DNA of 41,132 nt from Candidatus Woesearchaeota archaeon (GCA_964622565.1 CAZUQL010000001.1:1-41132); one strand, 5' to 3'. Counted from the first letter of the stretch, positions 28,423 to 31,386 are shown. The notes: generated by a model not told the origin, from the letters alone. Program-made: numbers and translations.

Positions 28423-29652
28423 ATGAAAGATTTGAAGGAAAAGGCAAGAGCTTATGCGTTAAAAAATGCACTTACACACCAGGGGAAGGCACAACAAGGG
28501 GCAGTTATTTCTGGTTTGTTTGCAGAAGGACTAAAACCCGCAGATATGAAAAAGTATGGAAAAGATATTTCTAAAATTGTTAAGGAGATTAATTCTCTTT
28601 CACTTGAAAAACAAGAAGAGGAATTTAAAAAACACGAGGGGGAGATTTCAAAACGAGAAGTGCGAGAAGGACTACCTGAACTGCCAGAAGTAAATAAAAA
28701 AACAGGAGTGATAACTCGATTTGCTCCAGCACCTTCTGGTCAATTACACATTGGACATTTTATCTCAAATGTTTTACCTTTTTTGTTTGTTAAAAAATAC
28801 GGAGGAAAATTTTATGTTAGGATTGAAGACACAAATCCAGAAAAAATTGATCCTAAAGCTTATGAGGGAATTAAAGATGACTGCGAATGGGTTTATAAGG
28901 GCGAAGTGAAAGAATATATAATTCAGTCAGATAGGATAGAAATTTATTATAAATATGCAAAAAAGTTAATCGAGTCTAATCATGCGTATATCTGTACTTG
29001 TAAACCAGAAAAATTTAGGGAATATGTAAACTTAAAAGAAAATTGCCCTTGTCGAAATAATGATAAAAAAGAAAATTTAATGAGGTGGGAAATGATGTTG
29101 GGAAATACTAAAGAAATTTATGGGGCTGGAGAAGCAGTATTGAGGTTTAAGACACCGAAAAAGTTTAGTGGAATGGAAAATCCAAATCCTGCTATGAGGG
29201 ACTTTCCTCTTGCTAGGATTAATTTAACCAAACATCCACGACAAGGAAAAAAATATAGGGTTTGGCCATTGATGCATCTTGCAGTTCCGGTTGATGATAT
29301 GGAGTATAAAATGACCCATATTATTAGAGGAAAAGACCATCGAGATAATGCTGAAAGACAAAAGATGATATTTGAAATTTTTGAAAAAAAATACCCTTGG
29401 ACTTTCTTTATGGGACGGATTAAGTTTAAGGACTTAAATCTTGGAAAAAGATTTATCAAAGCGGCGATTGAAGCAGGAGAGTATTCTGGATGGGATGATG
29501 AGAGATTGCCGACAATAAAGTCTTTAAGAAAAAGGGGGTATAAACCCGAATCGTTTTGGAAGCTTGCAGAACATAGGGGTTTAACAGAGGTGGATAAAGT
29601 AATGGCGAGTAAAGACTTGCTAGAATTATTAGACAAATTTAATAAGGAATAG
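28423..29652 (+). CDS. gltX: Glutamate--tRNA ligase, archaeal type, catalytic core only (C-terminal anticodon-binding domains absent)
   Basis: Archaeal N-terminal helical domain (AYALKNALTHQGKAQQGAVISGLF), HIGH motif (RFAPAPSGQLHIGH), RIEDTNPEK, HIIRGKDH and GEYSGWDDERLPT. The ORF stops at ...LLELLDKFNKE, roughly where archaeal GluRS normally enters its beta-barrel domains. Confidence 0.85.
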   Translation: MKDLKEKARAYALKNALTHQGKAQQGAVISGLFAEGLKPADMKKYGKDISKIVKEINSLSLEKQEEEFKKHEGEISKREVREGLPELPEVNKKTGVITRFAPAPSGQLHIGHFISNVLPFLFVKKYGGKFYVRIEDTNPEKIDPKAYEGIKDDCEWVYKGEVKEYIIQSDRIEIYYKYAKKLIESNHAYICTCKPEKFREYVNLKENCPCRNNDKKENLMRWEMMLGNTKEIYGAGEAVLRFKTPKKFSGMENPNPAMRDFPLARINLTKHPRQGKKYRVWPLMHLAVPVDDMEYKMTHIIRGKDHRDNAERQKMIFEIFEKKYPWTFFMGRIKFKDLNLGKRFIKAAIEAGEYSGWDDERLPTIKSLRKRGYKPESFWKLAEHRGLTEVDKVMASKDLLELLDKFNKE

Positions 29653-29716
29653 CAAAACCTTTTTATAGAGGTATTTCTTCTACAGATTATAAACTTATTA
29701 ATGAAAGGAGGTTAAG

Positions 29717-30169
29717 ATGAAAAATACTCGTGGTTTGTCTACAGTTGTTACAACACTGATAATTGTGTTGCTTGTACTTGTTGCTTTAACAATTGTTTGG
29801 ACTGTTATAAGAAATATTGTAGAGGACAGTGCAGCACAAACAGATATCAAAGCAAAATGTTTAACAGTAGATGTAAGGGTTACTAATGCTGTCTGTGATG
29901 AAGAAGGAATTTGTGATGTGACTATTGCTCGAGGTGCTGGAACAGGAGATAACGACCTTGGTGGGGTTTATCTAAAGTTTAGTGAAGGTACTGAAACAAA
30001 TGTTGTTGAACAAATAGGAAACATCGATAGATTAGATTCACAAACATACGAAGCTGTTGACTCAATGTTAATTCCAGACAAAGTGGAAGCATTTGCATAT
30101 TTTGTAGATGATTCTGGAAATGCGCAGCCTTGTGATGCTGGAGACTCATTCACTATTGAAACAGCCTAA
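29717..30169 (+). CDS. Archaeal type IV pilin, stand-alone and Shine-Dalgarno-led (major pilin candidate)
   Basis: MKNTRGLSTVVTTLIIVLLVLVALTIVWTVI (RG|LS class III signal). AAGGAGGT at 29705-29712 lies 4 nt before the ATG. TATA-like CCTTTTTATAGAGG at about 29659-29672. Confidence 0.8.
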   Translation: MKNTRGLSTVVTTLIIVLLVLVALTIVWTVIRNIVEDSAAQTDIKAKCLTVDVRVTNAVCDEEGICDVTIARGAGTGDNDLGGVYLKFSEGTETNVVEQIGNIDRLDSQTYEAVDSMLIPDKVEAFAYFVDDSGNAQPCDAGDSFTIETA

Positions 30170-30180
30170 AAAAATTTATT

Positions 30181-31386
30181 TTAATTTTTATTTATTTTGT
30201 AAACTTGGTCATTTTTTCGAACAAGGGGAATCTTAATTCCTACTTCTTGGCCTTTGTTTGCGTTTTTTATTTCTTTATATTTTTCTTGAAGAGAGTTTAT
30301 TTTGTAATTTAAAATTCCTGTTTTATTCCCAATTACTACAATTTCGTCCCCTAAACTAATTTTTGAGGAAAGTTTTAATGTAGCGACGTTAATCTTTTTA
30401 TAATAATTAGTAATCTTTCCAACAAAATGTTTTTTTTCTTTTGATGCAGAGTGCTCTACTCTTGCAAAATCATCGGGGGTTGGAAGTCCTAAATAAAATC
30501 CAGAGGAAAATTCTCTATTGTAAACTTTTGCTAGGTCTTCAACTAATTGGTTAGTTTCTTTTTTTGAAAGTTTTTTATCTAAGGCTTTTCTATAAGCCCG
30601 GACAACAACATCCACGTATCTTGGGTCTCTATTTCTTCCTTCAATTTTAAAACATTTTATTCCTACGGATTTTAGTTTTTCAATAAATGGAAGAGTGCAC
30701 AAATCTTTTGCAGAGAGAACCTTGTTGTTTTCTAATTCTAGTTCATAACCTTCTTGTTGGTCTTTTATTTTATAGGAAGAGTAAGACCTTCTACATGGAT
30801 GGAGACATTGTCCTCGATTTGCAGATTTATTGAACAAAAATTGCGAAGTAAAGCATCTTCCAGAAATTGCGACGCACATTGCTCCGTGACAGAAACATTC
30901 TATTTCTAAGTTTTTTATTTTAGATATTTCTTTGATTTGTTTTAAATCTAATTCTCGTGCAAGAACAATTCTCTTTGCTCCAAGTTTTTTAAAAAATTTC
31001 GCTGATTCTGAATTTGAAACTGAAGCTTGAGTGGAAATAAAAAAAGGAATCTTGTATTTTTTACATAATGAGATTATTGAGAAATCCCAACAGATTATTG
31101 CATCAATTGACTTTGATTTTTTTACTTTTTGAAGGATTTTTTCTACGTTGGGAATTTCGTGGTCATAGATAATTGTATTCAGAGTTAAGTAAATTTTTGG
31201 TTTATTGAGATAAGAGGATTTTATTTTTTGAAGTTTAGTTAAATCATTTAAAGAAAAATTTTTAGCTCCTGCTCGCATTGAGAATTCTTTTAATCCAATG
31301 TAAACTGCGTCAGCTCCTGTATTTAAAGCAGTTACCAAGGTTGCGAAATCTCCTGCAGGTGCGAGAAGTTCATATTCTGATTTCAT
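30181..31386 (-). CDS. Peptidase U32 family protein (RlhA/TrhP-like RNA hydroxylation family)
   Basis: ELLAPAGDFATLVTALNTGADAVYIG start and the conserved E..CHGAMCVAISGRC motif. ~400 aa. Confidence 0.85.
   Translation of the reverse strand: MKSEYELLAPAGDFATLVTALNTGADAVYIGLKEFSMRAGAKNFSLNDLTKLQKIKSSYLNKPKIYLTLNTIIYDHEIPNVEKILQKVKKSKSIDAIICWDFSIISLCKKYKIPFFISTQASVSNSESAKFFKKLGAKRIVLARELDLKQIKEISKIKNLEIECFCHGAMCVAISGRCFTSQFLFNKSANRGQCLHPCRRSYSSYKIKDQQEGYELELENNKVLSAKDLCTLPFIEKLKSVGIKCFKIEGRNRDPRYVDVVVRAYRKALDKKLSKKETNQLVEDLAKVYNREFSSGFYLGLPTPDDFARVEHSASKEKKHFVGKITNYYKKINVATLKLSSKISLGDEIVVIGNKTGILNYKINSLQEKYKEIKNANKGQEVGIKIPLVRKNDQVYKINKN

Follow-up and report, generated by a model that had tools for sequence, protein, structure and literature searches.

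Enzymes of the GluRS/GlnRS family are considered to rely heavily on the anticodon as an identity element of the tRNA. A 2024 paper describing a synthetase database names the beta-barrel ABD-EQ as the anticodon-binding domain of archaeal-type enzymes (GlxRS-A) and mentions no barrel-less variant. The non-discriminating GluRS of M. thermautotrophicus (PDB 3aii, 553 aa), the nearest relative with a solved structure to the enzyme described below, comprises a YqeY domain (residues 1–85), a Rossmann fold (86–170 and 288–331), a CP domain (171–287), a stem-contact fold (354–399), a proximal barrel (400–408 and 500–552), and a distal barrel (409–499); it binds one zinc ion, its glutamate-binding residues are Arg100, Asp282, and Arg292, and Arg403, Gln530, and Arg533 are the proposed readers of U35 (PMC2978374). 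An anticodon-binding domain is naturally missing from GluQRS (YadB; TIGR03838), a paralogue of the bacterial type that has about 300 aa, occurs beside a canonical GluRS, glutamylates queuosine-34 of tRNA-Asp, and is the only GluRS entry in a 2022 review of synthetase paralogues (PMC9437257). An engineered, C-terminally truncated E. coli GluRS stays specific for tRNA-Glu (Dubois et al. 2009, Biochemistry 48:6012, as cited in PMC2777447). The same source provides a further precedent in H. pylori GluRS2, whose tRNA selection is dominated by the acceptor stem and whose anticodon-binding domain is described as “useless” for discrimination (PMC2777447). No published description of a barrel-less archaeal GluRS was found in the searched literature.

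The window analysed here, the whole stretch of 41,132 nt from a Candidatus Woesearchaeota archaeon (GCA_964622565.1, CAZUQL010000001.1:1-41132), contains a gltX gene whose product is quite probably the sole housekeeping, non-discriminating GluRS of the GlxRS-A type in this organism, which has lost the barrel module and charges tRNA-Glu as well as tRNA-Gln with no contact to the anticodon. Like other GlxRS-A enzymes (3aii; NF003169/TIGR00463) it has the YqeY domain, the Rossmann fold with the HIGH motif, the glutamate-binding Arg/Asp/Arg residues, the zinc-containing CP domain, and the stem-contact fold, and it presumably shares their cellular role in supplying Glu-tRNA(Glu) as well as Glu-tRNA(Gln) for GatDE. 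Unlike them it has neither the proximal nor the distal barrel (residues 400–552 in 3aii), in which all proposed anticodon contacts are located. The natural absence of the anticodon-binding domain from a catalytic core of the GluRS family is the only point shared with GluQRS, from which gltX differs by being of the archaeal type, by having kept the YqeY and stem-contact domains, and by being the sole GluRS. According to PMC2777447, the truncated E. coli enzyme, which like gltX lacks the anticodon-binding domains, selects tRNA-Glu via acceptor and D-arm determinants within reach of the catalytic half, as gltX would; it was, however, engineered from a GluRS of the bacterial, alpha-helical type and is stimulated by the free distal domain. 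The truncation of gltX occurs naturally, has become fixed in a clade, and is maintained by selection, in a genome without a distal domain. H. pylori GluRS2 differs from gltX in having retained the domain and in existing beside a second GluRS copy.

Domain content and genomic context of the short gltX

The open reading frame encodes 409 aa and ends in ...LLELLDKFNKE, as a sequence-only reading of this DNA had stated, and is closed by a TAG codon (Table 1). Its only Pfam domain is the catalytic PF00749 (residues 96–403, E = 3.4e-64), and the Pfam search of the protein gave no PF03950, the C-terminal anticodon-binding barrel. The archaeal GluRS model NF003169 is matched from residue 2 onwards over profile positions 3–398 of 567 (423.5 bits, cut-off 516), and TIGR00463 over positions 3–389 of 560 (351.4 bits, cut-off 401.75); the product thus stays below both curated equivalog cut-offs. 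Residues 8–399 align with residues 8–389 of 3aii at 41% identity. In 3aii, residue 399 is the last of the stem-contact fold and residue 400 the first of the barrels; the reading frame therefore stops at the domain boundary where the anticodon module would begin. The earlier proposal of a GluRS without an anticodon-binding domain is therefore borne out by the Pfam, NF003169, and 3aii comparisons. The N-terminal helical domain that had been noticed in the same reading is present too, and its identity can be refined to a YqeY-like domain (residues 1–85 in 3aii); the continuation given there for archaeal GluRS proteins was also confirmed, as full-length relatives carry ...NKEIVEPKANRYFFV... at the point where gltX ends.

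Table 1. Features of the gltX locus, in nucleotide positions of the window.
Feature	Position	Strand	Basis
gltX, archaeal-type (GlxRS-A) GluRS, 409 aa, both beta-barrel anticodon-binding domains absent	28423..29652	+	Pfam, NCBIfam, 3aii alignment, structure model
YqeY-like N-terminal helical domain, aa 1–85, kept	28423..28677	+	Aligns with 3aii residues 8–85; four helices modelled, pLDDT 86–95
HIGH signature of the class I active site, His109-Ile-Gly-His112	28747..28758	+	Sequence reading
Zinc knuckle of the CP (acceptor-binding) domain, C191-x-C193 ... C208-x-C210	28993..29052	+	Cysteine conservation
KMSKS-equivalent loop, LNLGKRF (L-S-K-R-K in close homologues)	29434..29454	+	K342/R343 conservation; 3aii/GlnRS alignment
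Stem-contact-fold domain and terminal helix; protein end coincides with domain boundary	29503..29649	+	3aii domain limits
TAG stop at the truncation point	29650..29652	+	Sequence; end position common to >120 homologues
Spacer of 64 nt with A/T-rich TATA-like element and GGAGGT, too short for any C-terminal domain	29653..29716	+	Sequence
Pilin-like gene, 150 aa, conserved downstream neighbour of short and full-length GluRS genes	29717..30169	+	Profile matches

The gene is intact and conserved. Among 44 short homologues, H109 and G111 of the HIGH signature never vary, and the conservation of H112 reaches at least 90%. R99, D291/D292, and R302, which by alignment correspond to Arg100, Asp282, and Arg292 of 3aii, are likewise invariant, as are the zinc-knuckle residues C191, C208, and C210 (C193 at least 90% conserved) and, in the KMSKS-equivalent loop, K342 and R343. 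This loop aligns with VALSTSG in 3aii and VMSKRK in GlnRS; one of its positions is G in the present gltX and S in close homologues (LGKRF versus LSKRK), a difference that was counted against the main reading. The AlphaFold2 model of the protein has a mean pLDDT of 93 and a pTM of 0.79, with a well-formed terminal helix (residues 396–408, block pLDDT 87–93), and its best Foldseek match is 3aii (rmsd 1.9 Å, 322 columns). Pairwise comparison of short forms gave dN values of 0.19–0.29 at saturated dS (>1). In the first 90 codons dN was 0.24–0.31 in the closer short-form pairs and 0.45 between the present gltX and its nearest sampled relative, with dS saturated or not computable; the last 60 codons gave 0.17–0.26. 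The short gltX is under purifying selection, its N- and C-terminal parts included.

Downstream of the spacer lies a gene with a class-III-signal-like, pilin-like N-terminus, whose 150-aa product has no Pfam match. According to profile matches, this pilin-like gene is located directly downstream of the GluRS gene in at least 16 short-form and at least 10 full-length loci of this family. As the neighbour is common to both forms, the short gltX is the positional orthologue of the housekeeping enzyme. The possibility that the pilin-like gene represents a displaced or replacement C-terminus was rejected, because it gives no match to the barrel profile and adjoins full-length genes too; the sequence-only reading had come to the same view of it as not being a displaced C-terminus. 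In one relative (L044) the pilin-like gene is tandemly duplicated. A gene of the peptidase U32 family (PF01136, E = 9e-73; window positions 30181–31386, minus strand) is oriented convergently to the gltX–pilin pair, an arrangement kept in several relatives. Some members of the U32 family are RNA hydroxylases and not peptidases.

Distribution of short GluRS and loss of the barrels

More than 120 homologues with 61–72% identity were found in a large protein collection, every one of them 398–427 aa long and with PF00749 as its only domain. They originate from MAGs labelled Nanoarchaeota or Pacearchaeota, and one is located on a contig of 801,691 bp. All 23 short-form relatives compared (23/23) terminate at (F/L)N(K/R) followed by 0–8 residues. 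The NCBI label of the short proteins is “glutamate--tRNA ligase family protein”, with the consequence for annotation that completeness and pathway tools may score GluRS as missing or partial in such genomes.

A GluRS was found in 290 of 301 genomes of the order. About 120 of these proteins are full length (550–595 aa), and the remainder have either ~400–415 aa or 474–509 aa. The 474–509-aa intermediates consist of the core plus the last ~50 residues, which, together with the domain limits of 3aii, indicates a clean deletion of the distal barrel that left the proximal barrel behind. In full-length proteins the QFER motif (Gln530 and Arg533 of the M. thermautotrophicus enzyme) and the arginine of the RYFF motif (Arg403) were kept in 34 of 34 cases, the latter motif being nearly invariant as a whole, and all three U35 readers are lost in 11 of 11 intermediates. 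Anticodon reading had thus already been given up in proteins that continued to carry a vestigial barrel. In a GluRS tree that was built on core columns only and whose root is uncertain, 23 short forms and four intermediates formed one clade with 100% SH-aLRT support as sister to full-length sequences, and a second group of intermediates was placed elsewhere. These separate groups imply that the distal barrel was lost at least two or three times; complete barrel loss requires one to three changes on the tree. Judging from the sequences, the loss series leads from full-length enzymes via forms with the distal barrel deleted and the U35 readers gone to forms without either barrel. Within this one order of Nanoarchaeota, the distal barrel and the U35 readers would have disappeared first (474–509 aa), and the vestigial proximal barrel would have been dropped next, giving rise to the forms of ~400–415 aa. 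Such an evolutionary series would mean that anticodon reading was abandoned first and that domain deletion came after.

On the level of the class, the barrels were matched in 289 of 300 high-quality genomes. Those lacking them were eight members of the short-form family, two genomes without any GluRS match (G396, G481), one in which a contig end interrupts the gene (G590), and one with a partial open frame of 370 aa (G593); no complete truncation was confirmed in other families of the class among these 300 genomes. This distribution shows complete loss to be lineage-specific; it does not generally accompany a small genome. In automated tallies, GluRS genes interrupted at the edge of a contig mimic truncated or split forms, and length counts accordingly need a contig-edge filter.

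Two strongly divergent GluRS sequence types exist in one order (gltX loci L003–L074), type 1 with HIGH...RIEDTNP...RDFPLARI and type 2 with HIGN...DDTIGSE...RDRVLFRI. Within one family (f1), both types are nevertheless followed by the same pilin-like gene, which suggests that one type was replaced in situ or that the evolutionary rate shifted abruptly. The GluRS gene tree is at odds with the family labels.

Alternative explanations for the missing domains

The source genome is a fragmented MAG (585 kb, 59 contigs, 85% complete), and an assembly error, a frameshift, or a decaying pseudogene might account for a short gltX in such material. This explanation has practically no probability, however, since more than 120 independently assembled homologues have the identical end, which makes an assembly error at the stop untenable, since selection on gltX is purifying, and since, with a 64-nt spacer and the next gene starting at 29717, a C-terminus could not be accommodated in any frame. 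Another option, raised in the sequence-only reading, was a split gene whose barrel half is encoded elsewhere and joins post-translationally, as in some genes of Nanoarchaeum equitans. Displaced barrels were searched for with PF03950, with NF003169, and with a profile (A1) built on the final 166 residues of ten full-length relatives. Across the source genome, PF03950 had no match and NF003169 none past profile position 398, and the best A1 match to the six-frame translation, with all HMMER filters off, had an E-value of only 0.25. No A1 match at E <= 10 was obtained in 17 short-form genomes, i.e., the source genome and 16 others. Among these were G142 (one contig, 535,452 bp), three genomes of two contigs each (G061, G093, and G002), and two that are 98% complete (G041 and G045). 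Full-length controls were recovered at 1e-56 and 1e-54, and the intermediates with their vestigial barrels at 1e-7 and 1e-8; the class-wide matches reported above likewise demonstrate sufficient sensitivity of the profile. Nothing was found that favours a split gene: the superficially split GluRS genes of relatives, in G003 (C75/C3), G085 (C12), G470 (C14/C64), and G590 (C9), are all breaks at contig ends. With its searches empty and its controls positive, this option is refuted, and a barrel half encoded elsewhere must be considered extremely improbable.

A neofunctionalised paralogue resembling GluQRS/YadB, which would glutamylate a target other than the 3' end of tRNA-Glu or tRNA-Gln and leave Glu-tRNA to come from another source, would fit the missing anticodon-binding domain, and gltX does match GluQRS models weakly. 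These matches (69–111 bits) are far below the cut-offs of 250–453, as illustrated by the equivalog models NF004314 (111.2 bits, cut-off 256) and TIGR03838 (104.4 bits, cut-off 276.7). The source genome has a single PF00749 locus, gltX itself, and exactly one GluRS-type match was obtained in each of the near-complete relatives (e.g., G041, G045, and G142), so that no second gltX, as asked about in the earlier reading, exists in either search set. The source genome and at least 17 relatives, one of them assembled as a single contig, have just one gene of the GluRS/GlnRS type. As the source genome is 85% complete, part of the argument for a sole GluRS comes from the more complete relatives. A bacterial-type GluRS would have been detected, because the search of the relatives also scores in bacterial control genomes. 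All of the short-form genomes tested encode GatD and GatE (in the source genome at C4:6719-7927 and C4:2824-4251, respectively, outside the window), and no GlnRS was found in the short-form genomes; Glu-tRNA(Gln) must therefore come from a non-discriminating GluRS. With a product needed by GatDE, its place as positional orthologue of the full-length enzyme, its position nested within the GluRS tree, and its low GluQRS scores, gltX is very unlikely to be such a paralogue, an idea that also stems from the earlier reading. Queuosine, the GluQRS substrate, is not known to occur in archaea. Somewhat less improbable, though still unlikely, is an anticodon reader acting in trans, where the short GluRS would work only in complex with a partner protein holding or reading the anticodon arm, be it a non-homologous factor that binds tRNA, GatDE in an assembly resembling a transamidosome, or a different synthetase. 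A partner of a different fold would be invisible to homology searches; GatD, GatE, and a GatB-like gene lie within ~7.4 kb on contig C4, and the stimulation of the truncated E. coli GluRS by its free distal domain (Dubois et al. 2009, as cited in PMC2777447) offers a parallel. Against a partner it speaks that no conserved neighbour gene is specific to short-form loci, the conserved neighbours being common with full-length loci, and that GatDE could at best serve tRNA-Gln and not tRNA-Glu. In addition, the intermediates lost their U35 readers with a barrel still in place, which points to abandonment of anticodon reading and not to its outsourcing.

Proposed tRNA recognition by the catalytic half

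The remaining option offered in the earlier reading, a minimal GluRS with another recognition mode, is the best supported of its three, and corresponds to the sole, barrel-less housekeeping enzyme proposed above. From the single GluRS-type gene and the presence of GatD and GatE we infer a non-discriminating role. Aminoacylation activity, indifference to the anticodon, and use of the tRNA elements named below are the most likely properties of such an enzyme. It would glutamylate tRNA-Glu (UUC/CUC) and tRNA-Gln (UUG/CUG) with the anticodon left untouched, and GatDE would then amidate Glu-tRNA(Gln). Identity would be set by elements in reach of the kept domains, whose predicted contacts on the tRNA are with the acceptor stem and the inner corner; candidates are the acceptor stem itself and a D-arm signature of the Glx tRNAs. 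The YqeY domain may enhance affinity in cis, as it does for tRNA in the GlnRS of D. radiodurans (PMC1865053). Catalysis by GlnRS is allosterically coupled to the anticodon-binding domain (PMC2978374), and by analogy loss of the barrels is expected to cost efficiency.

The tRNA complement was assessed in the single-contig relative G142, which has 40 tRNAs including tRNA-Glu (UUC/CUC) and tRNA-Gln (UUG/CUG); an apparent tRNA-SeC(UCA) reported by ARAGORN in this genome turned out to be an intron-containing tRNA-Arg(UCG). The source genome yielded only 25–27 tRNA genes, compared with the 40 of its relative; those for Glu, Ala, and several other amino acids are missing, and no tRNA-Glu was found there by ARAGORN with and without introns or by the Rfam tRNA model. 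The missing tRNA-Glu is attributed to the 85% completeness of the source MAG, from which a considerable part of the tRNA genes is absent. The four Glx tRNAs of G142 share a D-arm signature consisting of G10-U25, U11-A24, a 9-nt D-loop (AGNGGYCAA), and a 4-nt variable loop, and no other tRNA among the 40 has it. As the signature is also present in full-length lineages, it is a pre-existing feature and no lineage-specific adaptation, and could have made the loss of the barrels tolerable. A tRNA-Glu/tRNA-Gln adaptation peculiar to the short-form lineage was consequently dismissed, the D-arm and D-loop of full-length lineages being identical. A compensating positive charge in the kept domains was dismissed as well, with averages of +20.9 in short forms and +20.8 in the nearest full-length proteins (residues 1–409).

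The evidence leans, if with some reserve, towards the wider view that a whole DPANN clade of the Pacearchaeota type translates Glu codons, and via GatDE also Gln codons, with a sole GlxRS that is blind to the anticodon. If this is true, the link between Glu and Gln codons and their amino acids rests in such cells on the tRNA body alone, i.e., on the acceptor stem and the D-arm, and any tRNA body of the Glx type would be charged with Glu regardless of its anticodon. They would then represent a living case of an “operational RNA code”, in a family for which reading of the anticodon and activation dependent on tRNA had been regarded as integral. A natural, fixed, and selected barrel-less enzyme as the only GluRS would demonstrate that the catalytic half plus YqeY is enough for cellular life, and would offer a compact natural scaffold for the study and engineering of anticodon-independent glutamylation.

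Two minor observations concern other components of the same pathway. In several short-form genomes the tRNA-Glu genes carry introns of ~28–120 nt after position 37/38 (e.g., G002:C1:502685-502784, G061:C1:319156-319350, and G041:C2:31362-31512). GatE has only ~480–510 aa in nearly all genomes of the order and is devoid of TIGR00134 positions ~263–397, an internal insertion domain; proteins of 620–635 aa occur in only three genomes (G032, G001, and G016). The shortened GatE represents a second reduction in the Gln-tRNA pathway beside the short GluRS.
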